Of a stretch of 64,000 bases of DNA, positions 2,840 to 62,276 are shown piece after piece. The DNA is from Bacteroidales bacterium (GTDB lineage: Bacteria > Bacteroidota > Bacteroidia > Bacteroidales > F082): the NCBI GenBank assembly GCA_045612345.1, contig JAZKYV010000040.1:13749-77748 (forward strand), given 5' to 3'. A program made the translations under genes and the position numbers. The notes under the pieces are model-generated. The model made no database searches, was not told where the DNA came from, and saw only the letters and a program-made list of their open reading frames with translations. The first letter of the stretch is position 1; every line of letters starts with the position of its first letter.

Positions 2840-4582
2840 TTAATAAACTTTCAATTTATCACCAGTTTGTTCTATGATTGCTCTATAATATTCATCGCTG
2901 AATTTAGGTTGTTCAACCTTTGGAGCATAGAACTTGTGGCTTTTTGGTGTTGCTTGAGCTGTCTTGACGTTGAAGTCCATATATTTTACAAATAAATATT
3001 TATAGAACTCTCTCCAGTCTGCAACCAATCTTTCAGCTTCTGTGCATGAGAATTTAGTGAGGAACTTAACAGCTTCTGCTGGATTTTCATTATACAATCT
3101 AGCTGCTTGTTCGTCGATGCGAGCTACTTCTTTAGCCCAGCCTTTTTCATAAGCTGCTTGGCGTTCAGCGATTTCTGGTTGGATGTAACGATATTTTGTA
3201 TAAGCCCAGTTTGTAACTTGGTTGAATGCCCAGAATGCTGATGTCTCTGAGAATTCCATGATGCTGCCGTTGCCAACACTGTATGCCTTAGGTGTTTCTG
3301 TCATACATGTGTACATTGGGCAATATACTGTGCTTGCTGCATCGTCAACGCCGAACCAGATGATACCGCCGATTTCAGCGATTGTGTTAGGACGACATTG
3401 TGCTACAAATGAGAAAGCTGTCTGTTGTGTTGCTGTTGCACGTTCGTGAACATATTCAACGCCGTCAACTTCCCAGCCCATTGGACGTGGTCTGTAAGGA
3501 CAACCGAATGGACCAGCGCCGATGTCTTGAGTCATGTCGAGTTCTGTTCCTTCAAGGTGGTCACGCATAAATGCCATAACATCTAAAAGGCTGACTTTTT
3601 CTGTTGGCTTAACCCAGAGAGGCATTCTGTTTGTTGGGAAGTTCTCAGGTGTTTGTGGCTGACCGCTTACATAAGGTTTTGCGCGGTTGATGTTTCTACC
3701 TGTTGCATAATCCCAGTATTGATCCATGCCGTCAACGATTTGGTTAAACATAGCCCAAACACGGATTTCACAAGCGCGAGCGCCGCTGAAGTCTACTGGT
3801 GCATAAACGTCTGAGAATGAGAATTTCTCATCTGGACCTGCGTATAAATTATTTTTCTTAGCGAATGAGATAACGTCAGCTGCGTAAACACAGTCGATGT
3901 TTTGATTCTTCAAAAGCTTGTCGATGTTCTTTGAAGTGATACTGTTTTTGTTTTGCTTGTTAGCTAATGGGAAAGTGGTAATACGAGCTTGGTTAGCGTG
4001 AGCTGAAACATAGCCGTCTGGCACACGGAGAGCTACCCAAACAGCGCCTGTCTCTTGACCTTTACCGATGAGTTCCATGATCCATACTTCGTTAGGGTCA
4101 ACGATAGAGAATGATTCGCCGTCGCTGATATAACCATAGTTAGCAACTAACTCAGCCATGACCTTGATAGCTTCACGAGCTGTCTTAGCACGTTGTAATG
4201 TGATGTAAATCAAGCTGCCGTAATCGATCAAACCATTAGGATTGCCTAAGTTTGGAAGTCCGCCGTAAGTTGTTTCTGCAATAGCGAGCTGCCATTCATT
4301 CATATTACCTACAACATTGTAAGTGTGAGCAACTTCTGGGATGCTGCCGAGATATCTTCCTGAGTCCCAATCGACGATTTGTCTCATTGTGCCTTCTGGA
4401 TAGTCAGCTGCAGGGAAATGATATAACTCGCCGTAAAGAACGTGAGAGTCTGCTGCGTAAGAAACCATAGATGTTCCGTCAACAGAAGCTCCCGGAGTGA
4501 TTAAGAAATTTGTACATGCCATAGCTGGTCTCACGAATGAAACTAAGCAGATAGCAACTAATAAAGTCAATACTCTTTTCAT
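2840..4582 (-). CDS. Peptidase family C69 dipeptidase (secreted)
   Basis: 580 aa. The signal peptide ends directly before a Cys nucleophile (PAMA|CTNFLITPGASVDGTSM), the Ntn-hydrolase signature of C69 dipeptidases. Confidence 0.8.
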   Translation of the reverse strand: MKRVLTLLVAICLVSFVRPAMACTNFLITPGASVDGTSMVSYAADSHVLYGELYHFPAADYPEGTMRQIVDWDSGRYLGSIPEVAHTYNVVGNMNEWQLAIAETTYGGLPNLGNPNGLIDYGSLIYITLQRAKTAREAIKVMAELVANYGYISDGESFSIVDPNEVWIMELIGKGQETGAVWVALRVPDGYVSAHANQARITTFPLANKQNKNSITSKNIDKLLKNQNIDCVYAADVISFAKKNNLYAGPDEKFSFSDVYAPVDFSGARACEIRVWAMFNQIVDGMDQYWDYATGRNINRAKPYVSGQPQTPENFPTNRMPLWVKPTEKVSLLDVMAFMRDHLEGTELDMTQDIGAGPFGCPYRPRPMGWEVDGVEYVHERATATQQTAFSFVAQCRPNTIAEIGGIIWFGVDDAASTVYCPMYTCMTETPKAYSVGNGSIMEFSETSAFWAFNQVTNWAYTKYRYIQPEIAERQAAYEKGWAKEVARIDEQAARLYNENPAEAVKFLTKFSCTEAERLVADWREFYKYLFVKYMDFNVKTAQATPKSHKFYAPKVEQPKFSDEYYRAIIEQTGDKLKVY

Positions 4583-8447: not shown

Positions 8448-8490
8448 TCTCAAAATTTTTGAGGTTCTGAGTTTCTGAATTTCTGAATCT
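8448..8490. repeat. Tandem 7-8-bp word array (TTYTGAR), reverse complement of the YTCARAA family
   Basis: tctcaaaatttttgagg ttctgag tttctgaa tttctgaa tc. It fills the gap after the LTD gene stop and encodes the last ~13 codons of the minus-strand DUF1893-like ORF. Confidence 0.8.
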
Positions 8491-8887: not shown

Positions 8888-8947
8888 CAACAGACTACGG
8901 ACAACAGTCAACAGATTTTGTTCAGAGTTCAACGTTCAATGTTCAAC
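8888..8947. repeat. Two abutting heptad arrays: (CAGACTA/CGGACAA family) then (GTTCARN family)
   Basis: caacagactacggacaacagtcaacagat (8888-8916), then gttcagagttcaacgttcaatgttcaac (8920-8947). It lies between two co-oriented genes and contains the stop codon of ORF 8929-9432. Confidence 0.85.
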
Positions 8948-15468: not shown

Positions 15469-15649
15469 GGGACACGAATTTTAAGGTTAAACATATTTGC
15501 AATATTAAGAAATATATATCATTTAGAAAAGTGTTTTTGAGATTTTTTTCAAAAAAAATCAAAGTTTTCCGCTCTATCTTTGCTCGCTCCGTTTCACTTC
15601 GCTCACAAAGGATGCCGCTCCAATCCCTAACGCAGCACCGCTATTATAA

Positions 15650-15735
15650 AAATTCAGAATCTCAAAATACCAAAACCCAAAAATTTTGAGATTCTGAGTT
15701 TTTGAAGTTTTGAGGTTTTGAACTTCTGAGATTTT
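15650..15735. repeat. Octad word arrays (YTCARAAN)x4 / (TTYTGARN)x6 in inverted orientation
   Basis: Perfect 15-bp inverted repeat TCAGAATCTCAAAAT (15654-15668) / ATTTTGAGATTCTGA (15683-15697) with a 14-nt loop. The right arm continues as ttttgaag ttttgagg ttttgaac ttctgaga. Confidence 0.85.
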
Positions 15736-15837
15736 AAAATGCTGAATATTAAACATTTATTTTTTTTGATTTTTTTAACAAAAAAACTTGTTTATCGGAT
15801 TTATTTGTTGTACTTTTACAAGTCAAATTTTTTTAAT

Positions 15838-22154: not shown

Positions 22155-22196
22155 ATATTAATTTATGAGCAAAGATAATAAAGAATTTACAATTAA

Positions 22197-22267
22197 AACT
22201 CAGAAATTCAGAACTTAAGAAACTTAAAAAAATTTGAGATTTTGATGTTTTTAAATTCTGAATTTTT
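22197..22267. repeat. Inverted octad arrays (YTCAGAAN / TTAAGAAA) and (TTTGAKRT / TCTGAATT)
   Basis: aactcagaaattcagaacttaagaaactt, then an A-run, then tttgagattttgatgtttttaaattctgaattttt. Confidence 0.8.
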
Positions 22268-26242: not shown

Positions 26243-26332
26243 ATCTTGAACTCAGAACCTTGAATCTTGAACACTGAACCTATTAGTTCAAAGTTCAAAG
26301 TTCAGAGTTCAGAGCTCAAAGCTCAGAGTTCT
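26243..26332. repeat. Gene-less hairpin built from heptad arrays: (CTTGAAY/CTCAGAAC)x5, loop, (GYTCARA)x6
   Basis: cttgaac tcagaac cttgaat cttgaac actgaac c, tatta, then gttcaaa gttcaaa gttcaga gttcaga gctcaaa gctcaga gttc. It starts 5 nt after the GT2 stop codon. Confidence 0.88.
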
Positions 26333-32710: not shown

Positions 32711-32822
32711 AAATTCAGAATTTCAAAATATCAGAAATTCAGAAAAATTTAAAACCCCTATAAGTTTAACTTATGGGGGTTCTTTATTTTGAGGTTTTGA
32801 GATTTTGAATTTCTGATATTTT
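32711..32822. repeat. Octad word arrays flanking a terminator; perfect 17-bp inverted repeat
   Basis: AAAATATCAGAAATTCA at 32725-32741 and its exact reverse complement at 32806-32822. Both arms are made of YTCARAAW / WTTYTGAR words. The terminator hairpin lies between them. Confidence 0.88.
32751..32790. terminator. Rho-independent terminator nested inside the inverted arrays
   Basis: Stem ACCCCTATAAG / CTTATGGGGGT with a T-rich tail, and an A-run on the other side. It lies between convergent genes. Confidence 0.75.
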
Positions 32823-33503: not shown

Positions 33504-35564
33504 ATGGAAAATAACGACAAACATTTCAAACGTTACACGGTAACGACAGCATTACCTTACGCTAATGGTCCAGTGCATATCGGTCACTTGGCAGGCGTAT
33601 ATATCCCAGCCGATACTTACGTTCGTTATCTACGAATGAAAGGCGAAGAGGTTTTGTTTGTCGGCGGCTCCGATGAACACGGCGTGCCTATCACTATCAA
33701 AGCTGAAAAAGAAGGCTGCACTCCACAAGATATCGTCGATAGATACCACAATATAATCAAAGATTCTTTCGAAAAACTCGGCATTAGCTACGACATCTAT
33801 TCTCGTACAAGCTCAAAGACTCACCATGAGACAGCAGCTGCTTTCTTCAAGAAACTCTACGAAGACGGCAAATTCATCGAAAGAGAATCAGAACAATTCT
33901 TTGATCCAGAACGTAACAAATTCTTGTCAGACCGTTACATCATCGGTACTTGCCCTAAATGTGGCAACGACCACGCTTACGGCGACCAATGTGAGAAATG
34001 CGGTTCTTCAATGAGTCCTGATGAACTCATCAATCCTCACTCAGCTCTCAGCGGCGCTGAACTCGTAAAGAAATCAACAAAACACTGGTATCTTCCTTTA
34101 GACCAATACGAACAATGGCTCCGCGAATGGATTATCGAAGGTCATAAAGAATGGAAACCTAATGTATACGGACAAGTAAAGAGCTGGTTGGATAACGGCT
34201 TGCAACCACGCGCTGTTACCCGCGACCTCGACTGGGGCGTTCCTGTTCCTGTTGAAGAAGCTGACGGCAAAGTGCTTTACGTTTGGTTCGATGCTCCTAT
34301 CGGCTACATCTCAAACACAATAGAACACTGCGCTGAAAAAGGCACTGACTGGAAAAAATGGTGGAAAGACGAAGATACAAAACTCGTTCACTTCATCGGT
34401 AAAGACAACATCGTTTTCCACTGCATCATATTCCCTTGCATGTTGAAAGCTTACGGTGATTATATCGTTCCAGAAAACGTTCCAGCTAACGAATTCTTGA
34501 ACCTCGAAAACGATAAGATTTCAACATCACGTAACTGGGCTGTTTGGTTACACGAATATCTCGAAGAGTTCCCTGGCAAACAAGACGTCCTTCGTTATGT
34601 TTTGACAGCTAACGCTCCTGAGACAAAAGACAATAACTTCACTTGGAAAGATTATCAAGATAGAAACAATAACGAGTTACTTGCTATCTTCGGCAACTTC
34701 GTAAATCGTACATTGGTTCTTACACATAAATATTTCGAAGGTAAGGTTCCAGCTATGATTAACCTTAATGAAAAAGATCAGGCTGCTATCGAAGAAATGA
34801 ATCAATATCCAGACAAGATCGCTAACCTACTCGATAACTATAAATTCCGTGAAGGCTTGTCAGAATTGATGAACTTGGCTCGTCTTGGTAACCGTTACCT
34901 CACAGAAAACGAACCTTGGAAACAATTCAAGACAGATCCAGAAAGAGTCAAGACAGTTCTCGCAGTTTCATTGCAAATCGTTGCTAAACTCGCTATCTTG
35001 TCAGAACCATTCTTGCCATTCTCAGCTAAGAAGTTACAATCAATGATTGGTTTGGAAGTAAGCAGCTGGAATCAAGCTAAGGAAACAATCTTATTGAACG
35101 AAAACGCTACTATCGGCGAAGTCGAATTGTTATTCACAAAAGTCGAAGACGAGACAGTGGCAGCTCAAGTCAATAAGTTGGAAGAGACAAAGAAACAAAA
35201 TGAACTCAACGCATGGGCTCCAAATCCAATCAAACCTAACACCAACATCGATGAATTTGGTAAGATGGATATCAGAGTCGGTACTGTTTTAGAATGCGTT
35301 AAAGTTCCAAAAGCAGATAAGTTATTACAATTCTTGATCGACGACGGTATGAACAAACGTACTATCGTTTCAGGAATCGCTAAATATTATCCAAATCCTG
35401 AAGAATTAGTTGGCAAGCAAGTATGCTTCATCGCTAACTTCGAGCCTCGTAAATTGAAAGGCATCGTCAGCGAAGGCATGATTTTGTCAGCTGAAGACAA
35501 AGACGGAAGATTGGTTGTTATGTCACCAAGTCAACCTGTTGCTCCAGGAAGCAGTGTTGGATAA
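33504..35564 (+). CDS. metG: Methionine--tRNA ligase (with C-terminal tRNA-binding/EMAP domain)
   Basis: 686 aa with HIGH ([14 protein letters not shown]), a Zn knuckle ([18 protein letters not shown]), KMSKS-equivalent KISTSRN, and a C-terminal DIRVGTV...[10 protein letters not shown] domain. Confidence 0.95.
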
Positions 35565-35588
35565 AAAGACACCAAGTCTCTGTGACTT
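35565..35588. repeat. Short array of the GACACCRA family filling the whole metG/yraN convergent spacer
   Basis: aaagacaccaagtctctgtgactt. The first 13 nt (AAAAGACACCAAG, counting the last A of the metG stop) also occur downstream of radA at 49781-49793. Confidence 0.6.
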
Positions 35589-35955
35589 ATTTAAGAGAAG
35601 GATAGAATGCATCTTCAATGTGTTCTATCCTTTTTTCATTATTTCTGTCGATGACGATTGCGATGATGTCGAATCTTACATCGTTGTCGTATTGATAGCG
35701 ATTGACGTATGAATTTGCAGCCCAGATGAGATGTCGTTGTTTATAGACATCGACAGTCGCTTCAGGTTCGACGAGGCAGGTGCTGTGTCGCGTTTTCACT
35801 TCTACGAAGACGATGGTGTTACCGTCTTTTGCGATGATGTCGACTTCTTTGTGGCCGCATGACCAATTCTTTTCTAAGATCTGATAATTACGCTCCAGAA
35901 GATACTCCAAAGCGATTTGTTCGCCTAAGGCGCCAATTTCATTGTGTTTTGCCAT
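35587..35955 (-). CDS. yraN: YraN-family (UPF0102) endonuclease-like protein
   Basis: 122 aa with GEQIALEYL, EVDIIA, IVFVEVKTR, a PD-(D/E)xK-like core. Confidence 0.8.
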   Translation of the reverse strand: MAKHNEIGALGEQIALEYLLERNYQILEKNWSCGHKEVDIIAKDGNTIVFVEVKTRHSTCLVEPEATVDVYKQRHLIWAANSYVNRYQYDNDVRFDIIAIVIDRNNEKRIEHIEDAFYPSLK

Positions 35956-35975
35956 AATTTTTTTGGTTTAAGGTT
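35952..35975. repeat. 24-bp perfect direct repeat, copy 1 (CCATAATTTTTTTGGTTTAAGGTT)
   Basis: Covers the yraN start codon and leader. An identical copy lies at 36370-36393. Confidence 0.9.
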
Positions 35976-35982
35976 TAATAAA

Positions 35983-36012
35983 AGACTACAGACTATGGAC
36001 TACAGACTACGG
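35983..36012. repeat. Heptad array (AGACTAY/GGACTAC)x4
   Basis: agactac agactat ggactac agactac gg. It is inverted relative to 36416-36443, with a 12-bp perfect complementary core (GGACTACAGACT). Confidence 0.88.
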
Positions 36013-36022
36013 TTAGAGTGTT

Positions 36023-36373
36023 TTAATTATTTTTTAGAAATTCTCTTAACTTATAGATTTGTTTGGATATAACTGACAATTTTGATTGTAGTTCTTGTCG
36101 TTTTTCTGTACTGCAATAATTTAAATCTTCACAAAGGTAAAGCATACTTTTGACTTCTGCGCAACTTCCATAAGATATGTTGAGATAACGAATGTAAGTT
36201 TTATCAGAACCACTTTCTGAACCTTCAGCAATGTTGTTCATAATAGACAAAGAAGCTCTTTGTATTTGATCACGGAAACCATAATCATTACAAGTATACA
36301 TTACTTCATAAATGGCTTTGACAAATAATCTAGAGTCTTGCCATACTCTTAAATTTTCAAGATTTCTTTCCAT
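36023..36373 (-). CDS. Four-helix-bundle protein, 23S rRNA-intervening-sequence / DGR-Avd family (copy 1)
   Basis: 116 aa with the family signature DQIQRASLSIMNNIAEGSESGS...YL.IS.GS..E. Confidence 0.85.
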   Translation of the reverse strand: MERNLENLRVWQDSRLFVKAIYEVMYTCNDYGFRDQIQRASLSIMNNIAEGSESGSDKTYIRYLNISYGSCAEVKSMLYLCEDLNYCSTEKRQELQSKLSVISKQIYKLREFLKNN

Positions 36374-36393
36374 AATTTTTTTGGTTTAAGGTT
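36370..36393. repeat. 24-bp perfect direct repeat, copy 2
   Basis: Covers the four-helix-bundle ORF start codon and leader, 418 bp from copy 1. Confidence 0.9.
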
Positions 36394-36408
36394 ATTATTA
36401 TGATTGAT

Positions 36409-37002
36409 TTAATCTGAAGTCCGAGGTCCGAAGTCTGTAGTCCTTCTTTCCACTAACTCGCAAATAATATGTCCTATCATAATGTGGCTTTCTTGTATGC
36501 GTGGGGTGTCGGTGGAAGGAACGTTAAGTAATATTCCGCCGAAGTCTTTCATCATTCCACCCGTTGCTCCGGTGAGCGAGATGATGTTGACGCCGAGTTC
36601 TTCACATGTTTTATAAGCTTCTATTATGTTACGGCTGTTACCGCTTGTCGATATTCCAACGAGCACGTCGCCTTTTTTTGCTGACGCTCTCATGATTCTG
36701 CTATAAACCATGTCGTAGCCGTAGTCGTTGCTGACGGCTGTCATGTAAGAAGAGTTGCAATGCAGGGCTTCTGCGTTGAGCGGATCGCGATCCAGATAAA
36801 AGCGGCCGCTGAGTTCCGCAGCGAGATGCTGTGCGTCGGCAGCGCTGCCGCCATTGCCGCAGAAATGAATCTTGCCGCCATTACGCAGACTCTCTACGAT
36901 GAGATTGACAGCGTCTTCAATAGACTGCATCAGTTTCTCATCAGATAAGATTTTGCTTTTTACCTCAATGCTTTGCTCTATGGACTCTTTTATTCTGTTC
37001 AT
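36409..37002 (-). CDS. gmhA: D-sedoheptulose-7-phosphate isomerase (SIS domain)
   Basis: 197 aa, collinear with E. coli GmhA (FCGNGGSAADAQHLAAEL, GISTSGNS, RIQESHI). The last ~12 codons (RRTTDFGPRTSD) are encoded by the heptad array. Confidence 0.85.
   Translation of the reverse strand: MNRIKESIEQSIEVKSKILSDEKLMQSIEDAVNLIVESLRNGGKIHFCGNGGSAADAQHLAAELSGRFYLDRDPLNAEALHCNSSYMTAVSNDYGYDMVYSRIMRASAKKGDVLVGISTSGNSRNIIEAYKTCEELGVNIISLTGATGGMMKDFGGILLNVPSTDTPRIQESHIMIGHIICELVERRTTDFGPRTSD
36416..36443. repeat. Heptad array (GRAGTCY/GTAGTCC)x4
   Basis: gaagtcc gaggtcc gaagtct gtagtcc. It lies inside the 3' end of gmhA. Confidence 0.88.
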
Positions 37003-37157
37003 GACTTTATGATTTGCTTATTGCAAAGTTACCTATAATTTATTGAAATGAGAGGTTTTTTTCAGGATTTTTTTATTCATAATATATCTGAAGACGCATC
37101 AACATTTTTTGATTTTTTAGGTATTGTTGATACGTCTCTACAAAATCCTTTTTTGTG

Positions 37158-39365: not shown

Positions 39366-39405
39366 AATCTCAGAAATTCAAAAATTCAAAACCTCAGAAT
39401 TTCGG
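39366..39405. repeat. Solo octad array (YTCARAAW)x4
   Basis: aatctcagaa attcaaaa attcaaaa cctcagaa tttcgg. It begins 9 nt after the S46 peptidase stop. Confidence 0.8.
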
Positions 39406-40686: not shown

Positions 40687-40732
40687 AATTATGAATTATG
40701 CATTAAGCATTATGAATTATCTAATGATTATC
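40687..40732. repeat. Heptad array (ATTATGM/ATTAAGC)x5-6 overlapping a stop codon
   Basis: aattatg aattatg cattaag cattatg aattatc taatgat tatc. It contains the stop (40717-40719) and the last codons of the PNGase F paralog. Confidence 0.75.
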
Positions 40733-48414: not shown

Positions 48415-49782
48415 ATGGCAAAAATTAAGACTGTTTTTTATTGTAAGGAGTGTGGTAATGAGTCACCTAAGTGGATCGGTCATTGCCCTGGCTGTGGAGC
48501 GTGGAATAGTTATGTGGAAGAAAGCGTTGCTGTTGGAAAAGATAACAAGTCTGCCAAGAATTCTTTTTTGCCAGAGATGAAATCCAAGCCTGTTCCTGTC
48601 TTGGAGATAAGCGCGGCCAAAGAGGCTCGCATCGATATGGGATGCGAGGAACTCAACCGCGTTTTGGGTGGCGGTCTCGTCTCTGGTTCTCTCATATTGC
48701 TAGGCGGCGAACCTGGAATAGGAAAATCGACGCTTTTGCTGCAAGTGGCTCTTAACCTTAAAGATAAGAAAATACTTTATGTATCTGGCGAAGAGAGCGC
48801 ACAACAGATCAAGATGCGCGCTGAGCGTATAGGTGTGCGTAACGAGAGCTGCCTCATCCTGACCGAGACAAATACTACAGACATCACGAAACATATCGAA
48901 GAGACAAAGCCAGACATCGTTGTCATCGACTCAATACAGACTCTCGAGTCGGCGGCAGTCGACTCAACGGCGGGCAGCATAAGTCAGATTCGTGAGACTG
49001 CCGCCGAGATGAACAAGGTGGCGAAATCTCTTCACATCCCGACATTCCTCATAGGTCATATCACCAAAGACGGCAGCATCGCCGGACCTAAAATCTTAGA
49101 ACATATAGTCGATACCGTGATACAATTCGAGGGCGACCGCCACTATGGTTTCCGCGTCCTTCGCACCATAAAAAACCGCTTCGGTTCTTCTTCAGAACTA
49201 GGTATCTTCGAGATGAATGCCAATGGTTTACGTGAGGTGTCAAACCCAAGTGAGATCTTGTTGTCGCAACGTGACGAGAACGTCAGCGGCATCAGCATCG
49301 CTGCCACTCTCGAAGGGCTGCGTCCTATGATGATAGAGACTCAGGCTCTGGTCAGCACTGCTGCTTATGGCACGCCTCAACGTAGCTGCACCGGCTTCGA
49401 CACTCGCCGCCTTAATATGCTGCTCGCGGTGCTGGAGAAAAGGGCAGGATTCCGCCTCTCTACCAAAGACGTCTTCCTCAACATAGCGGGAGGATTGCGC
49501 GTTGATGATCCTGCTATCGACCTTGCTGTGGTAGCAGCGATTTTATCATCGAACGAAGATGTGGAGATAAGTAACAGATATGCCTTCGCAGCAGAGGTGG
49601 GACTCTCCGGCGAGATACGCTCGGTCAACAGGATAGAAGCCCGCATCGCCGAAGCCGACAAACTCGGAATGGAAAAGATATTTGTGTCGAAATACAACTG
49701 CAGAGGCCTCGACACCTCCAAATTCAATGTTGAGGTAGTACCGTTGGCGACGATAGGAAATTTGTTTAAAGAGTTGTTTTAA
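48415..49782 (+). CDS. radA: DNA repair protein RadA
   Basis: 455 aa with a Zn finger (CKECGNESPKWIGHCPGCGAWN), Walker A (GGEPGIGKST), KNRFG, and a Lon-like C-domain. Confidence 0.95.
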   Translation: MAKIKTVFYCKECGNESPKWIGHCPGCGAWNSYVEESVAVGKDNKSAKNSFLPEMKSKPVPVLEISAAKEARIDMGCEELNRVLGGGLVSGSLILLGGEPGIGKSTLLLQVALNLKDKKILYVSGEESAQQIKMRAERIGVRNESCLILTETNTTDITKHIEETKPDIVVIDSIQTLESAAVDSTAGSISQIRETAAEMNKVAKSLHIPTFLIGHITKDGSIAGPKILEHIVDTVIQFEGDRHYGFRVLRTIKNRFGSSSELGIFEMNANGLREVSNPSEILLSQRDENVSGISIAATLEGLRPMMIETQALVSTAAYGTPQRSCTGFDTRRLNMLLAVLEKRAGFRLSTKDVFLNIAGGLRVDDPAIDLAVVAAILSSNEDVEISNRYAFAAEVGLSGEIRSVNRIEARIAEADKLGMEKIFVSKYNCRGLDTSKFNVEVVPLATIGNLFKELF

Positions 49783-49810
49783 AAGACACCAAGACACCGA
49801 GACACCGAGA
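49783..49810. repeat. Octad array (GACACCRA)x3
   Basis: aagacacc aagacacc gagacacc gaga, starting 1 nt after the radA stop. It is inverted relative to 50222-50256, with a 13-bp perfect complementary core (CCAAGACACCGAG). Confidence 0.88.
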
Positions 49811-49840
49811 TTTATATTTATTAACTAAAAGTCAAAAATT

Positions 49841-50200
49841 ATGAAGCGCACAATAGAAAATTTATACATTTGGCAAGAGTCAAGAAGCGTAGTAAATGAT
49901 ATCTACACATTGATGAAAGATTGTAGAGATTTTGGTTTTAAGGACCAAATTCAAAGAGCATCTATAAGTATTATGAATAATATTGCAGAAGGAACAGAAT
50001 CAGGATCTGATGCGAAGTATATAAACTTTCTGAATATTTCAAGAGGCAGTTGCTCCGAAGTGCATTCAATGTTATACCTATGTGAAGATTTTAAAATATG
50101 TTCACAGGAAGAAAGAATTAAGATTCAGAATAAAATAAAACTATTGTCAATAGGGATAGTAAACTTAATCAATTATATTTCAAATAACAAGAAGCATTAA
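49841..50200 (+). CDS. Four-helix-bundle protein, 23S rRNA-IVS / DGR-Avd family (copy 2)
   Basis: 119 aa with DQIQRASISIMNNIAEGTESGS...FLNISRGSCSEV. It is roughly 55-60 percent identical by eye to copy 1. Confidence 0.85.
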   Translation: MKRTIENLYIWQESRSVVNDIYTLMKDCRDFGFKDQIQRASISIMNNIAEGTESGSDAKYINFLNISRGSCSEVHSMLYLCEDFKICSQEERIKIQNKIKLLSIGIVNLINYISNNKKH

Positions 50201-50215
50201 TCAGGTTACTTAAAC

Positions 50216-51142
50216 TCAATTCTCGGTGTCTTGGAGTCTAAGTGACTTGGTGACTCTAAAAAACCATACTACCAAAAACGACATTCCCCATCGTGAAAGC
50301 AGCATCCAGAGGTATGCTCCGCCGGCTGCAGTGAACAATAAAAGATCTTCTAAGTTGCTGTGTGATATCCCTATATGCATATTTAGAAGGTCGTTTTCTT
50401 CTTTGGTGGTTTCGCCTTTTTCTGCTTCTTCTATCATAATGCCTGCGCCGTAAGCCAGTCCCAAGGTGTTGGATACTAACCATAAGAAAGCGCATTTCGG
50501 TGATAGACCGAAAAATATCATCACTGGCTTTAAGAATCTTGAGATGTATTGTATTATGCCGAACTCGGTTAATATCTTTTGTAACAATGTCAAGAGATAT
50601 ACCAACAAGGCCATCGTGAGTATGTTCTTCGTTGTTCTGAAAGCCCATTGCTTTAACATCACTGCAAATGTCAGATTGTCTTGTATGGAACTTTCAATGG
50701 CTTGGTTTTCAAAGCCTCCAGGCATGATTTTGTTTAAGACCCATCCTAATATGAATGCTGATAATGTTCTTACTATAACAATCTTGATTACAGAAGAACC
50801 TGTCTTATGCTGAACGGCTGTCTCTACGATCATATTATGCGAACAAAGCACCATGACGGATAATATCGTCGCGGCTCTTGTGCTGAGTTCTAATGTCGTC
50901 ATCACGGCGATGGCGGAATAGCAGTTGACGAAATATCCTGATACATAAGCGAGCGCTGCTTCACCAGGAAGTCCGAAGTGTGAGAAGATAGGAGTGAGCC
51001 AATATGAAATCCATTCTATGATTCCGAAATATTGTAATAATAATATCACAAATGATAGAGAGACCATTATCTTGGTCAGCCACCAGATGGTTTTTAATGC
51101 GCTCGGTCTGGCGCTTTTGATGCAATTTGTAAATCGTGACAT
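50216..51142 (-). CDS. Nucleoside-recognition (Gate) domain-like polytopic membrane protein
   Basis: 308 aa with about 8 TM helices. The family call is tentative. The last ~12 codons (VTKSLRLQDTEN) are encoded by the octad array. Confidence 0.45.
   Translation of the reverse strand: MSRFTNCIKSARPSALKTIWWLTKIMVSLSFVILLLQYFGIIEWISYWLTPIFSHFGLPGEAALAYVSGYFVNCYSAIAVMTTLELSTRAATILSVMVLCSHNMIVETAVQHKTGSSVIKIVIVRTLSAFILGWVLNKIMPGGFENQAIESSIQDNLTFAVMLKQWAFRTTKNILTMALLVYLLTLLQKILTEFGIIQYISRFLKPVMIFFGLSPKCAFLWLVSNTLGLAYGAGIMIEEAEKGETTKEENDLLNMHIGISHSNLEDLLLFTAAGGAYLWMLLSRWGMSFLVVWFFRVTKSLRLQDTEN
50222..50256. repeat. Octad array (CTYGGWGW)x4, reverse complement of GACACCRA
   Basis: ctcggtgt cttggagt ctaagtga cttggtga ctc. 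Confidence 0.88.
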
Positions 51143-54373: not shown

Positions 54374-54375
54374 TT

Positions 54376-54410
54376 AGACTTTGAACCTTGACTTTGAACC
54401 TTGAACTTTT
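54376..54410. repeat. Heptad array (CTTTGAA/CCTTGAM)x5
   Basis: agactttgaaccttgactttgaaccttgaactttt, starting 3 nt after the topA stop. It is inverted relative to 54827-54892. Confidence 0.85.
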
Positions 54411-54413
54411 AAT

Positions 54414-54446
54414 AATACCTCGGGATTTTCCGGGGTATTTTTTATA
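54414..54446 (+). terminator. Rho-independent terminator
   Basis: Stem ATACCTCGG / CCGGGGTAT (one mismatch) followed by T6. Confidence 0.7.
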
Positions 54447-54475
54447 TCAAAATTTATAACCTTAAAAATTACAAC

Positions 54476-54826
54476 ATGAGAAATTTTAGAGAATATGACA
54501 TTTGGAAAGATTCGATGATCATTACCAAAGATGTTTATTTATATACAAAAGAGTTTCCAAAACAAGATGCCATTATAAATCAAATGCAAAGGGCTGCAAT
54601 TTCTATCCCGTCTAATATTGCAGAAGGTTCATCGAGAAAGTCTTCTGTTGAATTTGCTAGATATATAGAAATAGCATTGGGTTCAGCATACGAGTTAGAG
54701 ACACAAATAGAATTGTCTTTTCTTCTTCATTACATAAATAATGATATTTATAAAAAATTAATATCAAATGTTTGTAGTGTTGAAAAACGAATGTCAAAAT
54801 TTATATCAACATTAAGAGAAAAATAG
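54476..54826 (+). CDS. Four-helix-bundle protein, 23S rRNA-IVS / DGR-Avd family (copy 3, divergent)
   Basis: 116 aa with NQMQRAAISIPSNIAEGSSR...YIEIALGSAYELETQ. Confidence 0.8.
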   Translation: MRNFREYDIWKDSMIITKDVYLYTKEFPKQDAIINQMQRAAISIPSNIAEGSSRKSSVEFARYIEIALGSAYELETQIELSFLLHYINNDIYKKLISNVCSVEKRMSKFISTLREK

Positions 54827-54892
54827 CTCAAAGTTCAGAGCTCAAAGTTCAAAGCTTAAAGTTCAGAGCTCAAAGTTCAAAGTTCAGAGTCC
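54827..54892. repeat. Heptad array (GYTCARA/GCTTAAA)x9
   Basis: ctcaaa gttcaga gctcaaa gttcaaa gcttaaa gttcaga gctcaaa gttcaaa gttcaga gtcc. It fills exactly the gap between the 4HB stop (54826) and the polA stop (54893). Confidence 0.9.
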
Positions 54893-57583
54893 TTAGTGCG
54901 CTTCCAGCCAATTGGTTCCTGTGTTGAGATTAACTTCAATAGGAACATTGAGTGGGAGCGCATTTGTCATTTTATCTTTGACGAGTTCGCTCAATATATC
55001 GAGTTCTTCTTTATGGACGTCGAAGACCAATTCGTCGTGTACCTGTAATATCATCTTGGATTTCAGATCTCTTGCTTTCATCTCGTTGTAGATGTTGGTC
55101 ATCGCTATTTTTATCATATCGGCTGAGCTGCCTTGTATTGGCGCATTGATGGCGTTTCTCTCTGCGAAGTTCCTTACTACGCTGTTGCCGGAGTTGATGT
55201 CGCGGAGATAACGACGGCGTCCTAACATAGTTTCAACATATCCGTATTGTTTCGCGAAATCGACTTGCTTGTCGATATATTCTTGAATGCCGATATATTC
55301 TTTGAAATAATTCTTTATTATCTCTGAGGCCTCGCTTCTTGATATCTTTAATCTTTCTGCCAATCCGAATGCCGACATTCCGTAAATGATGCCGAAGTTG
55401 ACAGCTTTGGCGTTGCGACGCATTTCGCTGGTGACGTCTTTTATGTCAACGCCATAGACGCGAGCTGCTGTGTCAGCGTGAATGTCAAGCCCCTCACGGA
55501 AGGCAGACTGCATGGCTTGGTCGCCGCTGAGATGAGCGATGATTCTTAACTCAATCTGCGAATAATCCGCTGCGAGCAGTATGTGGTTTTCGTCACGTGG
55601 AACGAAGGCCTTTCTGATCTCACGGCCTTTGTCGGTACGAACCGGTATGTTCTGGAGGTTAGGGTTGTTGGAACTCAATCGACCTGTGGCTGTAACGGCC
55701 TGGTTGAATGAAGTGTGAATGAGACCATCGTAAGGGCTTACCAATGAAGGCAAGGCATCGACATAAGTCGATTTGAGTTTTGTCAGAGAACGATAGTCGA
55801 GAATATGTTGTACTATAGGGTTTTCGTTTATGATCTTTTGGAGGACATCTTCGCCTGTAGGATACTGGCCTGTCTTTGTTTTCTTGGCAGGCGCCTTTAT
55901 CTGCAGCTTGTCAAAAAGAATCTCGCCCAATTGTTTTGGTGATCCAATGTTGAAAGTCGTGCCAGCGATTTCATAGATGCTGTTTTCTATATCAGCAATC
56001 TCTTTGGCTTGTTCCTCGCTGATCTGTTTCAGTCCGTTGATGTCTATCTTGACGCCGTTGGATTCCATCTTGGCAAGGACTCTTACCAATGGCATCTCGA
56101 TGTCGTGGAAAAGGCTTTCTAAATCATTTTCAGATAATAAGTCCTTGAACTTATCGTAAAGCTGCCATCTGATGTCGGTATTGTCTGTGGCGTAAATGTC
56201 GTTGAGATAATCGAGACTATGATTCAATTCCGGCTCAATGAGATAGTGAGCTATCATGCAGTCCCATAACTTATTGTTGATCTCAAAACCATATTTTGCA
56301 AGAATTGAGATGTCGGTCTTGATGTTATGGCCTATTATCGTTTTCTCATTGTCGTTGAAGATGCAAGAGAATTTTGTTAATAAGTCTTTGCATTTCTCGT
56401 CATCGACAGGAAGTTCTATCTTGTAAATGTCGTTAGGGTTGACGGCAAAAGTCATTTCTCTTGTCTCGATATGGAAAGAGAATTCATTGCAGCTCTTGAG
56501 ATTGTCAATAAGTTCATTGATTTGAGAATCATCTTTAACGATGATGAACTCACGAGTTTTAACAATGTTGGTAGCAGGTTCTTCATCGAAGCCGCCGAAA
56601 AGATCAAGCTGGCTGTTGGCTGCTGGCTGTTGGGTATTAGCCATCGGCTTTTGGCTTTTAGCTACTGGTTGTTGGTTATTGGTTGAAGTCTGTTGTCTGT
56701 TGTCTGTTGTCCGTTGACTCTTAAACCTCGCAAGGAATGTTCTGAATTCCAGTTCTTCGAATAATTCGGTGAGGCGATCCATATCAGGGTCTTTGACTTT
56801 CAGCTGTTCTTCATCGAAATCGACAGGTACGTTGGTGTCTATTGTCGCGAGTTTTTTAGACATAAGACCTTGTTGTGCGAAGTTGATGACGTTCTCTCGC
56901 ATTTTGCCTTTTAGTTTATCGGCATTTGCGATGAGGTTTTCAACGGAGTCGAATTCAGCTATGAGTTTGGAAGCGTTTTTCTCCCCGATGCCAGGGATGC
57001 CAGGGATGTTATCGGAAGCGTCGCCCCATAGTCCGAGTATGTCGATGACTTGTTCAGGGCGGGCAATGCTGTATCTCTCGCATACTTCTGCAGGTCCGAG
57101 GACTTTTGCAGGCTCGCCGCCTTTTGCAGGTTTATAGATGAATATGTTTTCACTTACGAGCTGCCCGAAGTCTTTGTCGGGAGTCATCATAAATGTGGTG
57201 AAGCCTTCTTTTTCAGCTTTCTTGGATAGCGTTCCTATTATGTCATCGGCTTCATAGCCTTCGCGTTCGAAGATAGGAATGTTAAAAGCTTTTATGATTT
57301 CCTTTATGTAAGGGACAGAAGCCTTGATGTCAGGAGGTGTCTCTTCTCGGTTGGCCTTATAAGCGGAGAAGTCGTCGGTGCGGAGGGTAGGAGCGCCGAG
57401 GTCGAAGGCAATGCCTATATGGGTGGGTTTTTCGTTTTTAAGCACTTCATATAAAGTGTTCAGAAAACCCATAATGGCAGAAGTGTTCAAGCCTTTTGAG
57501 TTGATTCTTGGGTTTTTATTTAAAGCAAAATAGGCCCTATATATAAGTGCGTAAGCGTCGAGAAAGAATACCTTTTTCATCAT
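54893..57583 (-). CDS. polA: DNA polymerase I
   Basis: 896 aa with a 5' nuclease domain (FLDAYALIYRAYF, GIPGIGEKNA), a 3'-5' exo-like domain, and pol motifs (LLAADYSQIELR, RRNAKAVNFGIIYG, QVHDELVFD). It contains an in-frame repeat-derived linker. Confidence 0.95.
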   Translation of the reverse strand: MMKKVFFLDAYALIYRAYFALNKNPRINSKGLNTSAIMGFLNTLYEVLKNEKPTHIGIAFDLGAPTLRTDDFSAYKANREETPPDIKASVPYIKEIIKAFNIPIFEREGYEADDIIGTLSKKAEKEGFTTFMMTPDKDFGQLVSENIFIYKPAKGGEPAKVLGPAEVCERYSIARPEQVIDILGLWGDASDNIPGIPGIGEKNASKLIAEFDSVENLIANADKLKGKMRENVINFAQQGLMSKKLATIDTNVPVDFDEEQLKVKDPDMDRLTELFEELEFRTFLARFKSQRTTDNRQQTSTNNQQPVAKSQKPMANTQQPAANSQLDLFGGFDEEPATNIVKTREFIIVKDDSQINELIDNLKSCNEFSFHIETREMTFAVNPNDIYKIELPVDDEKCKDLLTKFSCIFNDNEKTIIGHNIKTDISILAKYGFEINNKLWDCMIAHYLIEPELNHSLDYLNDIYATDNTDIRWQLYDKFKDLLSENDLESLFHDIEMPLVRVLAKMESNGVKIDINGLKQISEEQAKEIADIENSIYEIAGTTFNIGSPKQLGEILFDKLQIKAPAKKTKTGQYPTGEDVLQKIINENPIVQHILDYRSLTKLKSTYVDALPSLVSPYDGLIHTSFNQAVTATGRLSSNNPNLQNIPVRTDKGREIRKAFVPRDENHILLAADYSQIELRIIAHLSGDQAMQSAFREGLDIHADTAARVYGVDIKDVTSEMRRNAKAVNFGIIYGMSAFGLAERLKISRSEASEIIKNYFKEYIGIQEYIDKQVDFAKQYGYVETMLGRRRYLRDINSGNSVVRNFAERNAINAPIQGSSADMIKIAMTNIYNEMKARDLKSKMILQVHDELVFDVHKEELDILSELVKDKMTNALPLNVPIEVNLNTGTNWLEAH
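56609..56720. repeat. Intragenic heptad array, 16 units (112 bp), inside polA
   Basis: ctggctg ttggctg ctggctg ttgggta ttagcca tcggctt ttggctt ttagcta ctggttg ttggtta ttggttg aagtctg ttgtctg ttgtctg ttgtccg ttgactc. On the coding strand this gives the 7-aa-periodic QRTTDNR QQTSTNN QQPVAKS QKPMANT QQPAANS. Confidence 0.88.
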
Positions 57584-59298: not shown

Positions 59299-60030
59299 TT
59301 GTCTTTACTCACATTCTTTAGATATAGAAATAAGTCTGATAGAGCATTGGCAAGTTCTATCCATAATATCTTTGGCTTTTATCCTAAAAATATAGAATTG
59401 TATAAATTGGCTTTCACTCATAAGTCAATGTCTATAAAAAATAGTGGATATAGCATTAGCAATGAACGCCTTGAGTTCCTTGGTGACGCTGTGTTGAGCA
59501 CTATCGTAGCTCAGTTCTTATTTAAGAAATATCCGACACGACAAGAAGGCTTCATGACAGAGATGCGCTCTAAAATCGTAAGTCGCGCTTCCTTGAATAA
59601 GCTGTCCCAGAAATTCGGTTTCGAAAATCTGATCAATTACGCAAGATCTAACGAACAAGGTAAATCTAAATCAATGGGCGGTAATGCTTTCGAGGCTTTC
59701 ACCGGCGCTTTGTTCCTAGATTATGGCTACGAATACGCATATAAGATAATGGTGAACCGTGTCATAAGAATGCATATCGATCTTGAAGAACTTGAGAAGA
59801 ACGAGACTAACTATAAAAGCAAGCTTCTTGAATGGGCGCAGAGACAGAAACGTCGCGTGGTGTTTAATCAAGTGGCTGTTAAAGGCGCCGGTTACGACCG
59901 ACTATATCATATTCAAGTCACTATCGATGATGAAGAATATGGCAAGGCTGCAGACCATTCTATAAAAGGAGCAGAACAGCTTGCAGCAGAGAAGACCTGG
60001 TTAATGATGAACGAACAGAACTCTCAATGA
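59299..60030 (+). CDS. rnc: Ribonuclease III
   Basis: RNase III signature NERLEFLGDAVL and a C-terminal dsRBD (YKSKLLEWAQ...GAEQLAAEK). The start is apparently TTG at 59299, because an in-frame TAG at 59293 precludes an upstream start. Confidence 0.88.
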   Translation: MSLLTFFRYRNKSDRALASSIHNIFGFYPKNIELYKLAFTHKSMSIKNSGYSISNERLEFLGDAVLSTIVAQFLFKKYPTRQEGFMTEMRSKIVSRASLNKLSQKFGFENLINYARSNEQGKSKSMGGNAFEAFTGALFLDYGYEYAYKIMVNRVIRMHIDLEELEKNETNYKSKLLEWAQRQKRRVVFNQVAVKGAGYDRLYHIQVTIDDEEYGKAADHSIKGAEQLAAEKTWLMMNEQNSQ

Positions 60031-61581: not shown

Positions 61582-61650
61582 AGTCAACAGACAACGGACA
61601 ACGGACAACACTCAAAAGTCATTGTCAATTGTTAATTGTCAATTGTTAAT
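61582..61650. repeat. Heptad arrays (RGACAAC)x4 then (GTYAATT)x4, partly self-complementary
   Basis: agtcaac agacaac ggacaac ggacaac actcaaa agtcatt gtcaatt gttaatt gtcaatt gttaat. It fills the pheS-start / PPIase-stop spacer. Confidence 0.85.
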
Positions 61651-61652
61651 TT

Positions 61653-62276
61653 TTATTTTAAAATTTCAATTGTCATTGTTACGGCTTCAACAGGAACATC
61701 CATATAACCTGTCTTTACCTTAGCGATTTTGTCGATGATTTCGAGACCTTCAACAACTTCACCGAATACTGTATATTCGCCGTCCAAGTGTGGAGTGCCG
61801 CCAACTGTTGTATAAGCTTCGATTTGTTCTTGTGTGAAAGTCAAGCCCATACGTTGTTGATACATTTGGATGTGAGCATCTGTTAACACTTGACCTTGAA
61901 CGATGTAGAATTGGCATCCGCTAGAAGCTTTTTTAGGGTTGACATGGTCTCCTTGACGAGCTGCAGCCAGAGCGCCTTTTTTGTGGATGTGGTTCGCGCG
62001 GAATTCAGCTGGGATTGTATAACCTGGATCAACGCTACCGTCTTGGTTGTGGCCGCCTTGAATCATGAAGTTATTGATAACACGGTGGAATGGTGAATTG
62101 TTGTACCAACCTTCGTTAATAAGCTTTATGAAATTATCTCTATGTAATGGAGTGTCGTTGTATAACTTAACAGTGATGTCACCTAATGAAGTCTTGATCA
62201 AGACTAATGTTTCTTTTTCTTGTGCTTGTGTTGTCATGCCTAATAATATACAAATGATTAAACAAATTTTTTTCAT
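61653..62276 (-). CDS. Cyclophilin-type peptidyl-prolyl cis-trans isomerase (secreted)
   Basis: 207 aa with a signal peptide, FHRVINNFMIQGG, and SGCQFYIV. Confidence 0.9.
   Translation of the reverse strand: MKKICLIICILLGMTTQAQEKETLVLIKTSLGDITVKLYNDTPLHRDNFIKLINEGWYNNSPFHRVINNFMIQGGHNQDGSVDPGYTIPAEFRANHIHKKGALAAARQGDHVNPKKASSGCQFYIVQGQVLTDAHIQMYQQRMGLTFTQEQIEAYTTVGGTPHLDGEYTVFGEVVEGLEIIDKIAKVKTGYMDVPVEAVTMTIEILK

Follow-up and report, generated by a model that had tools for sequence, protein, structure and literature searches.

An intervening-sequence-like gene cassette outside rRNA, inserted or exchanged at the yraN leader of a Bacteroidales bacterium

We analyzed a 64,000-nt stretch of DNA from a Bacteroidales bacterium (contig JAZKYV010000040.1, positions 13,749 to 77,748; hereafter, the window) and found a gene cassette between its genes gmhA and yraN. 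The cassette resembles the intervening sequences (IVSs) of 23S rRNA, lies outside rRNA and was inserted or exchanged at the leader of yraN. It holds a small open reading frame (ORF) of the four-helix-bundle (4HB) family PF05635, flanked by inverted arrays of tandem 7-nt words. Among close relatives, the cassette was a discrete unit, present or absent at the gmhA-yraN site and recently exchanged. The ORF and its arm words were inherited together and moved together across loci and phyla. The inverted-array anatomy was the norm across the PF05635 family, which has about 26,000 clusters at 50% identity. The result links the rRNA IVSs, the orphan family known as 'S23p' and the heptamer arrays of bacteria.

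The cassette between gmhA and yraN

The features of the locus are given below in the order of the minus strand, with the gene of RNase III added at the end. dS is the divergence at synonymous sites, and TRF is Tandem Repeats Finder.

36409-37002, minus strand: gmhA, SIS-domain phosphoheptose isomerase (Pfam SIS_2, E 8.8e-30); upstream gene, same orientation as the 4HB gene
36416-36445, minus strand: 5′ arm, in sense AAGGACTACAGACTTCGGACCTCGGACTTC, about four heptad words (from TRF and the inverted repeat)
36394-36415, minus strand: spacer of 22 nt from the 5′ arm to the leader, AGATTAAATCAATCATAATAAT
36370-36393, minus strand: first copy of the 24-mer, made up of the A-rich leader and ATGG of the 4HB gene, in sense AACCTTAAACCAAAAAAATTATGG; left border of the exchanged module
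36023-36373, minus strand: 4HB gene, PF05635/TIGR02436 by profile matches, 116 aa
35981-36012, minus strand: 3′ arm, in sense CCGTAGTCTGTAGTCCATAGTCTGTAGTCTTT, four heptad words complementary to the 5′ arm, inside the near-identical tract
35976-36393, minus strand: exchanged module of about 418 bp (leader, ORF, 3′ arm and 7-nt spacer), from strain divergence and dS
35952-35975, minus strand: 24-mer copy 2, leader plus ATGG of yraN (exact repeat); right border of the module
35587-35955, minus strand: yraN (Pfam UPF0102, E 3.6e-26); downstream gene, same orientation
59299-60030, plus strand: rnc, RNase III (TIGR02191, 178.4 bits against a cut-off of 166), outside the cassette

Thus, gmhA is followed by AAGGACTACAGACTTCGGACCTCGGACTTC, the 22-nt spacer, the leader AACCTTAAACCAAAAAAATT with ATGG, an ORF of 116 codons, the array CCGTAGTCTGTAGTCCATAGTCTGTAGTCT, a 7-nt spacer, the 24-mer again and then yraN. 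An earlier reading of the letters alone (the sequence-only reading) had placed the ORF between yraN and gmhA, away from rRNA, and had located rnc at 59299-60030. Both placements stood. The neighbors of the 4HB gene are an S46 peptidase gene, gmhA, yraN and metG, and an Rfam scan of the window, cassette included, revealed neither rRNA nor any other Rfam family. A sigma-70 scan of gmhA-yraN, which does not model Bacteroidota promoters, found promoter-like sites no more commonly than in shuffled sequence. Likewise, no terminator-like hairpin was seen inside the cassette, in a scan not tuned for Bacteroidota.

The family assignment, made at first from a sequence signature, was borne out by profile searches. 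The 116-aa protein, which holds DQIQRASLSIMNNIAEG, scored 112.2 bits against PF05635 (E 1.7e-32, cut-off 33.8) and 103.8 bits against TIGR02436 (cut-off 24), and the family motif Q-x-x-R-A-x-x-S-I-x-x-N-I-A-E-G is present in it as QIQRASLSIMNNIAEG. S43, N47, I48, A49, E50 and G51 were invariant across 26 diverse family members. With a dN/dS (nonsynonymous to synonymous rate ratio) of 0.04-0.11, the protein is kept by purifying selection. An AlphaFold2 (AF2) model, built from a three-sequence alignment of the window proteins, had a pLDDT of 93.8 and predicted helices at residues 2-24, 31-53, 57-83 and 89-115. In a Foldseek search, this model resembled 2GSC (XCC0516; template modeling score, TM, 0.85) and 2RLD (BT_0352; TM 0.82), each of which has five chains in the PDB table. 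Next came Avd, the accessory protein of diversity-generating retroelements (DGRs), with 4DWL and 8UB7 at TM 0.79-0.80 and 7% identity. When the family profile was run against the PDB, it matched 2GSC and 2RLD and did not reach 4DWL at E <= 1. The supposed kinship with Avd therefore stands as a likeness of predicted structure (TM ~0.8) and not as a match of sequence; judged from the model, the relation is structural only.

The two inverted heptad arrays were recovered by TRF at 35983-36010 (period 7, 4.0 copies, unit AGACTAC) and at 36416-36443 (period 7, 4.0 copies; units GAAGTCC, GAGGTCC, GAAGTCT and GTAGTCC). The consensus GRAGTCY proposed for the second array is only approximate. As an inverted repeat, the arms reach 79% complementarity over 28 nt and 94% over 16 nt. 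The perfect 12-bp complementary core was found as GGACTACAGACT on opposite strands, and three matches occurred at one mismatch when 0.12 were expected. In the predicted fold of the 521-nt sense transcript, the arms were paired in both the minimum free energy (MFE) and the centroid structures (z = -2.9), with an arm duplex of -39.5 kcal/mol (the three cassettes of the window span -34 to -40). The predictions therefore agree with the proposal that a read-through transcript would form a long stem with the ORF in its loop.

The 5′ array extends into gmhA, whose last ~12 codons (36409-36445) are array sequence. GmhA has 197 aa in the window and 189-193 aa in five related contigs without the ORF (L183, L191-L193 and L196; L numbers denote the loci compared). 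Across the window and L183-L198, this array-encoded C-terminus varied in sequence and in length (189-198 aa). Array turnover thus rewrites the tail of a housekeeping enzyme.

The sequence-only reading had also described a perfect 24-bp direct repeat over the starts of yraN and the 4HB gene, and this was exact. The 24-mer CCATAATTTTTTTGGTTTAAGGTT has two copies, at 35952 and 36370, 418 bp apart, and both terminate in the CAT (= ATG) of a start codon. No match was found in 100 shuffles, even at three mismatches. Around the 24-mer, the direct repeat reaches 39 nt at 85% identity.

The claim that a module of about 418 bp was inserted or recombined at the yraN leader was supported by the divergence between strains. 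Among contigs with an identical 4HB protein, mean divergence was 8% in gmhA (up to 13.7%), 6.5% in yraN and 0.11% in the ORF. Pairwise divergence was at most 1.2% across 36381-35983 and 5-12% in the flanks, and the tract of low divergence ran from 24-mer to 24-mer. Between the window and L082, L084 and L087, dS was 0.55-0.62 for gmhA, 0.43-0.56 for yraN and only 0.03 for the 4HB gene. The flanking genes are thus far more diverged than the module, which implies a recent exchange. The missing synonymous changes cannot be explained by our having chosen contigs on an identical protein. The 5′ arm was variable among strains and was replaced in L081 and L089.

Sites without the ORF were found in the same species complex. 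In L183, L191-L193 and L196 (yraN protein 92-95% identical, flanking DNA 83-91%), gmhA precedes a heptad array that runs in one direction (GAACTTT/GAACTAA), and next come one leader, AACTTTAAACCAAAAAAATTTATGG, and then yraN. These sites show one leader and not both 24-mers with both arrays, as expected if the cassette had been added. Other ORF-less alleles had an expanded direct array, a differently worded array hairpin or just a 3′ arm, the same as in the L001 cassette, and some held unrelated small hairpins. In a second lineage, L097 and L099 have a cassette and L100-L102 have none, with flanking genes 98.4-99.5% identical, so its presence or absence is a polymorphism within a species. In L098, we observed a scaffold gap (a run of N at 2386-2484) precisely at the gmhA-yraN spacer, and its sister contigs are polymorphic for the cassette. 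Such elements break assemblies.

Comparison with more distant cassettes showed both movement and replacement. L001 has a 4HB protein 78-80% identical to that of the gmhA-yraN cassette (copy 1), located between rfbA and rfbB and preceded by a related leader. Its words are AGACAAC/GTTGTCT and those of the window are AGACTAC/GTAGTCT, a compensatory change. L008, a Bacteroidales metagenome-assembled genome, was aligned with window 48415-51142, where a second cassette lies (see below); RadA and the downstream protein were 96-98% identical, whereas the 4HB protein was only 71% identical and the arm words were different. This implied that the cassette was replaced in a fixed slot. Related cassettes thus occurred at unrelated loci and different cassettes in one slot, although most close pairs of cassettes were syntenic.

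Leaders resembling the 24-mer were found in the cassettes of L001 and L097 and as the native yraN leader of ORF-less sites, and the exact duplication, ATGG included, was confined to this lineage. The simplest reading is that a cassette leader recombined with the similar yraN leader, an event that would duplicate the site and could also delete the module. The route might be Campbell-type integration of a circle with one leader, or recombination at short homology.

Inverted arrays across the PF05635 family and around a second cargo

The window has two further PF05635 genes, which were found by tblastn with the 4HB protein. Their cassettes are as follows.

49783-50256, plus strand: second cassette, with its 5′ arm at 49783-49811, (AAGACACC)x3.5, directly 3′ of the radA stop
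49841-50200, plus strand: ORF of the second cassette, 119 aa, 59% identity to copy 1
50221-50256, plus strand: 3′ arm of the second cassette, overlapping the end of a convergent gene; predicted arm duplex -37.3 kcal/mol
54374-54892, plus strand: third cassette, with its 5′ arm at 54374-54409, directly 3′ of the topA stop
54416-54445, plus strand: terminator-like hairpin between the 5′ arm and the ORF of the third cassette
54476-54826, plus strand: ORF of the third cassette, 116 aa, 30% identity to copy 1
54827-54892, plus strand: 3′ arm of the third cassette, abutting the polA stop; predicted arm duplex -33.8 kcal/mol

All three PF05635 genes of the window therefore lie between inverted arrays, and the words differ each time (AAGACACC in the second cassette, TTGAACY/AAAGTTC in the third). 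The arms around each ORF match one another and differ from the other arrays of the same genome. As the arm sequence changes and yet stays complementary, what is preserved seems to be a structure or the result of a copying process, not a shared sequence motif. Exact-protein look-ups gave no match for yraN or for the second 4HB protein, and those for the third gave short contigs alone, in the same context.

We surveyed 80 loci with relatives of the 4HB protein (82 ORFs), taking one genome per species from many phyla, including Bacteroidota, Patescibacteria, Chloroflexota, Pseudomonadota, Desulfobacterota, Nitrospirota and Campylobacterota. Inverted repeats were scored by strict local alignment of the 150 nt upstream of each gene with the reverse complement of the 150 nt downstream. 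A score of at least 12 was reached by 61 of the 82 ORFs, compared with 9 of 571 offset window pairs and 18 of 294 other genes at the same loci. At a score of at least 14, the numbers were 50/82, 1/571 and 10/294, respectively. The expected enrichment of 4HB genes near inverted arrays was therefore found beyond the window (74% versus 1.6-6%). The RNAduplex energy of the 150-nt flanks was of no use for telling cassettes from controls, being governed by GC content and by loose pairings of great length.

The words of the arms had a period of 7, 8 or 9 nt, and the median arm contained 4.6 copies. On the sense strand, the 5′ arm was purine-rich in 37 cassettes and pyrimidine-rich in eight. In 67 of the 82 cases the upstream neighbor was co-oriented, and the median distance from its stop to the 4HB start was 63 nt. 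Protein identity was correlated with the sharing of same-sense 6-mers between arms (Mantel test, 0/500). One group with a common protein and the words ATAAAGTT spanned Saccharibacteria, Gammaproteobacteria and Ignavibacteria, and another, with AAGGTTC words, comprised Gallionella, Syntrophaceae and a deltaproteobacterium.

None of the 80 loci lay in an rRNA gene. The name of the family is thus misleading, and its rRNA-borne members are the exception. PF05635 comprises 26,220 clusters at 50% identity. Its homologs were present on 15 plasmids and absent from 50,697 phage records. In other papers, PF05635 genes were recorded inside cas loci, with flanking arrays unmentioned. On plasmid pNe_5 of Nostoc edaphicum, a 'four helix bundle protein' gene (L203; NZ_CP054697.1, 259376-259744) is antisense to nrdB and nrdA, between which it lies; it is preceded by (TAGGGAG)x7 and followed by (TCCCTAC)x4.5, both of them perfect arrays. 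A Calothrix plasmid has an 'S23 ribosomal protein' gene with TTAGCTG and AGCTAAA arrays. The STRR-type heptamers of cyanobacteria may be the same phenomenon.

The strongest matches among the controls proved to be genes of GxxExxY proteins (TIGR04256, PD-(D/E)XK superfamily). The GxxExxY genes considered include those at L006:4864-5262, L054:4596-4997 and L103-L182. Among non-identical metagenome loci, inverted arrays with a score of at least 12 flanked 39 of 60 GxxExxY genes and 1 of 171 controls. Their words are 9-10 nt long, of the GAACGCGGAT or GACGCAAAT type, and are conserved across environments; the 5′ arm was purine-rich in 25 cases and pyrimidine-rich in none. That two unrelated small proteins have one design makes this a class of element rather than a peculiarity of a single family. 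We also observed two GxxExxY genes within 1.5 kb of a 4HB cassette.

Known systems and possible explanations

The closest known counterparts are the IVSs of 23S rRNA. The IVS of Coxiella burnetii is 428 nt long, has an S23p (= PF05635) ORF and a 28-bp stem of terminal inverted repeats, and is cut by RNase III in vitro; its 5′ arm includes AGAAGA and, next to it, GACAGAT heptamers in tandem, two or three of them depending on the strain (PMC4990558). ORF-bearing 23S IVSs also occur in Leptospira (Ralph & McClelland 1993, as cited in PMC4990558). The window cassette is similar to these in its PF05635 ORF in the loop, its terminal inverted repeats forming a long stem, the tandem heptamers of its 5′ arm, its scattered distribution with horizontal acquisition, and the size of the whole element (~0.43-0.46 kb). 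However, 23S IVSs sit in helix 9, 25 or 45, whereas the window element and all 80 of its sampled relatives lie between protein-coding genes and not in 23S rRNA. Cutting by RNase III has been shown for the rRNA elements only, and the function of the host RNA does not depend on excision of the window cassette. A literature search, with subscription journals not covered, found neither a description of IVS-like cassettes outside rRNA nor a paper connecting inverted flanking arrays with any PF05635, TIGR02436 or GxxExxY gene that lies elsewhere than in rRNA. The novelty asserted by the sequence-only reading thus held, and the association is new as far as we found.

Four other systems were compared. 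REPIN-RAYT systems also have one small gene between inverted short repeats and gene-less hairpins scattered between genes. However, RAYT belongs to the Y1 transposases and a single REP sequence is used genome-wide, whereas the window cassettes each have their own words, arms that are tandem arrays and a cargo fold without known catalysis. A RAYT-like (IS200-type) gene between inverted REP-like sequences (L053:4625-5539) came up among our control matches. The Correia/NEMIS elements of Neisseria are small inverted-repeat elements co-transcribed with their neighbors, and their hairpin RNA is a substrate of RNase III; they differ in that they lack an ORF, end in plain terminal inverted repeats (TIRs), duplicate a defined TA target and exist in hundreds of nearly identical copies. 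Integron cassettes are similar to the window module as promoter-less single genes in a fixed slot, with an imperfect inverted-repeat site and a presumed circular intermediate. However, they have attC at one end only and require an integrase and attI, whereas the window cassettes have arms at both ends and the slots occupied are ordinary intergenic spacers throughout the chromosome. No integrase or site-specific recombinase was present among the Pfam-annotated genes within ~3 kb in related contigs, although no integrase search of the whole window was made. A miniature inverted-repeat transposable element (MITE) or TIR transposon was also considered and rejected, as occupied and ORF-less alleles share no short target-site duplication and the window copies are 30-59% identical with different arms.

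We lean, without great confidence, towards the explanation that the gmhA-yraN feature is a gene cassette of the IVS type within an operon of protein-coding genes, that is, a promoter-less 4HB module in the loop of a hairpin whose arms are inverted arrays of four to five words. The 418-bp module (leader, ORF and 3′ arm) would have entered by recombination at the yraN leader, duplicating the 24-mer. gmhA, the 4HB gene and yraN would share one transcript, in which the arms could pair as an imperfect stem of ~25 bp. By analogy with the Coxiella rRNA IVS, host RNase III might then cut this stem, which would free the 4HB message with paired ends and split the host messages. As a long near-perfect RNA stem is an RNase III substrate in Coxiella and rnc is encoded here, we favor such excision; release by RNase III would let an insertion be tolerated in operons as it is in rRNA. 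Because word length and word sequence are specific to the cargo, the oligomeric protein, judged from these sequences, probably recognizes its own arms, a putative activity that might serve autoregulation, protection or mobility.

Several points weigh against this explanation. No recombinase gene adjoins the cassette, and both transcription of this locus and its cutting by RNase III are so far proposals. The arms are complementary at just 79% over 28 nt. About one fifth of the cassettes in the family are antisense to their neighbors, for example in Nostoc nrdAB, so sense-strand read-through is not universal. Mismatches in the arms showed no excess of G·U over A·C, either in the 4HB cassettes (90 versus 122, in sense RNA) or around GxxExxY genes (45 versus 57). 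What maintains complementarity thus seems to act on DNA, or to be a copying process, rather than selection on RNA. A family-wide search for direct repeats like the 24-mer over leader and start codon at other cassettes gave only palindromic word arrays, so the duplication is specific to this locus and not a hallmark of the family. Hairpins of word arrays are found even where there is no ORF, both at ORF-less gmhA-yraN alleles and at five positions of the window. Finally, L081 and L089 keep the module intact from 24-mer to 24-mer without a matching 5′ arm. This last state is the outcome that insertion at the leader would give, and the 5′ arm may in part be a native array of the gmhA tail.

A wider version can be offered only tentatively. 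PF05635 genes and, independently, GxxExxY genes might be the cargo of ubiquitous self-contained cassettes, whose oligomeric products would read the words of their own arms and which would colonize spacers, operons and occasionally rRNA. The 23S IVSs would then be a rare case, and ORF-less derivatives could be the source of much of the excess of heptamer arrays and hairpins. Such a class would turn three puzzles into one testable problem: the origin and nature of 23S rRNA IVSs, open since 1990; a very large orphan family with solved structures and no known role; and the excess of heptamer arrays in bacterial genomes, which is unexplained. If RNase III cuts cassettes from transcripts, this would be a general way for genes to inhabit operons, cas loci and rRNA harmlessly. 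Should the proteins prove to read the arrays around their own genes, they would form a family of programmable modules for protein-nucleic acid recognition. In practice, the arrays alter the C-termini of neighbors (GmhA), break assemblies (the gap in L098) and may pass for CRISPR-like repeats.

The absence of a G·U excess, the cargo-specific word length and the conserved GxxExxY words together suggest complementarity at the DNA level and words that are read by the encoded protein. They bring in a first alternative, namely that the feature is a mobile element of DNA. The arms would be terminal inverted repeats in which sites bound by the cargo protein (the 4HB pentamer or the GxxExxY nuclease) follow one another in tandem, and they would serve synapsis, excision or homing, with the RNA stem and RNase III as by-products. 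In its favor, the words are diverse and 7-8 nt long for 4HB genes but conserved, GAACGCGGAT-like and 9-10 nt long for GxxExxY genes, and they covary with protein identity. Moreover, the median of 4.6 words per arm stands beside the five chains of 2GSC and 2RLD, GxxExxY belongs to a nuclease superfamily, and related cassettes occur at unrelated loci. However, no target-site duplication or clean excision footprint was visible, occupied and ORF-less alleles differing over the whole spacer, and the 4HB fold has no known catalytic motif. The three window copies look like old paralogs (30-59% identical, different arms) and not like recent transpositions, and close cassette pairs are mostly syntenic. 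We consider this alternative possible but somewhat doubtful.

The purifying selection on the protein and its mostly syntenic inheritance would also fit a resident, domesticated gene with an autoregulatory RNA operator. The protein would bind the word arrays of its own mRNA, the stem would control translation or stability, and the exchange would be ordinary homologous recombination. The purine-rich 5′ arm in sense (37 versus 8; GxxExxY, 25 versus 0) and the resemblance of the words to Shine-Dalgarno sites (AAGG, GAGG), in phyla that use such sites, agree with this, as does the role of the Avd fold as an RNA-binding scaffold in the DGR ribonucleoprotein 8UB7. We nevertheless think it unlikely. 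The exchanged tract has sharp boundaries at the ends of the cassette with no decay into the flanking genes, one slot can hold unrelated occupants, and an mRNA operator makes little sense for the rRNA-borne cassettes of Coxiella and Leptospira.

Heptamer arrays are widespread in their own right. They are over-represented in many bacteria, and the known cases include GGGAATC in Xanthomonas (70-75 inverted pairs), STRR in Nostoc and Calothrix, and TAACTGA in Beggiatoaceae (PMC4692102, PMC4679880). Like the cassette arms, these arrays are tandem 7-nt words between genes, often at gene starts or stops, often in convergent pairs, variable in length among strains and transcribed. One of them abuts the gene of XCC0516, a homolog of the window protein; in the supplementary tables of Rehm et al., a GGGAATC-type array of Xanthomonas is placed 6 nt beyond bccP, extending over the annotated start of XCC0516. 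However, such arrays were described as simple-sequence or G-quadruplex repeats without a link to an enclosed gene family or to IVSs, and Rehm et al. treated theirs as G-quadruplex motifs without connecting them with the XCC0516 gene. The over-representation, the many period 7-8 arrays and five ORF-less array hairpins of the window, and the persistence of arrays at ORF-less gmhA-yraN alleles could mean that arrays and hairpins are generic spacers or terminators with small ORFs between them by chance. Such a coincidence is very improbable, as paired arms match each other and not the other arrays of the genome, the enrichment is 74% versus 1.6-6%, and arm words follow their protein lineage from phylum to phylum.

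Bacteroidales have many invertons, and the cassette is a short segment between inverted repeats, as a phase-variable segment flipped by a site-specific recombinase would be. We give this idea little credence, because gmhA, the 4HB gene and yraN had one orientation in all the places shown for the 23 contigs with an identical protein, and there is no apparent internal promoter and no adjoining recombinase. Least credible of all is a remnant or component of a DGR with the 4HB protein as its Avd: the modeled fold is Avd-like (4DWL/8UB7, TM 0.79-0.80), the solved relatives form pentamers, Avd has a nucleic-acid-binding role, and CDD groups both families (PMC10053308), but identity is 7%, the family profile misses 4DWL at E <= 1, the phage records hold no homolog, the neighbors include no reverse transcriptase, and 35500-37100 has neither a pair of template and variable repeats nor any long direct repeat beyond the 24/39-mer.

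Other repeats in the window

The window is rich in arrays of period 7-8. Those outside the three cassettes are listed below.

112-187, 15648-15745, 22196-22265, 26247-26331 and 32711-32822: inverted word-array hairpins without an ORF, loops of 5-40 nt
8454-8488, 8888-8947, 39370-39391, 40687-40720 and 61585-61673: solo arrays

The hairpin at 32711-32822 holds a GC-rich terminator-like hairpin and has convergent genes on either side.

A small palindromic element with the conserved ends AGACGYRTCAA…TTGAYRCGTCTCTAC was observed at 37093-37141, with gmhA on one side and the S46 peptidase gene on the other. Palindromes with the same ends recur in other strains, where they separate gmhA from the cassette leader or lie in the spacer of ORF-less gmhA-yraN sites (L081 and L089, ~2925-3000; L101 and L102, ~2390-2450). 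This looks like a separate, MITE-like family.

In the reading frame of polA, a heptad array at 56610-56716 (21-nt period) encodes a Q/T/N-rich linker, …QQTSTNNQQPVAKSQKPMANTQQPAANSQ…, which implies that word arrays also invade coding sequence.

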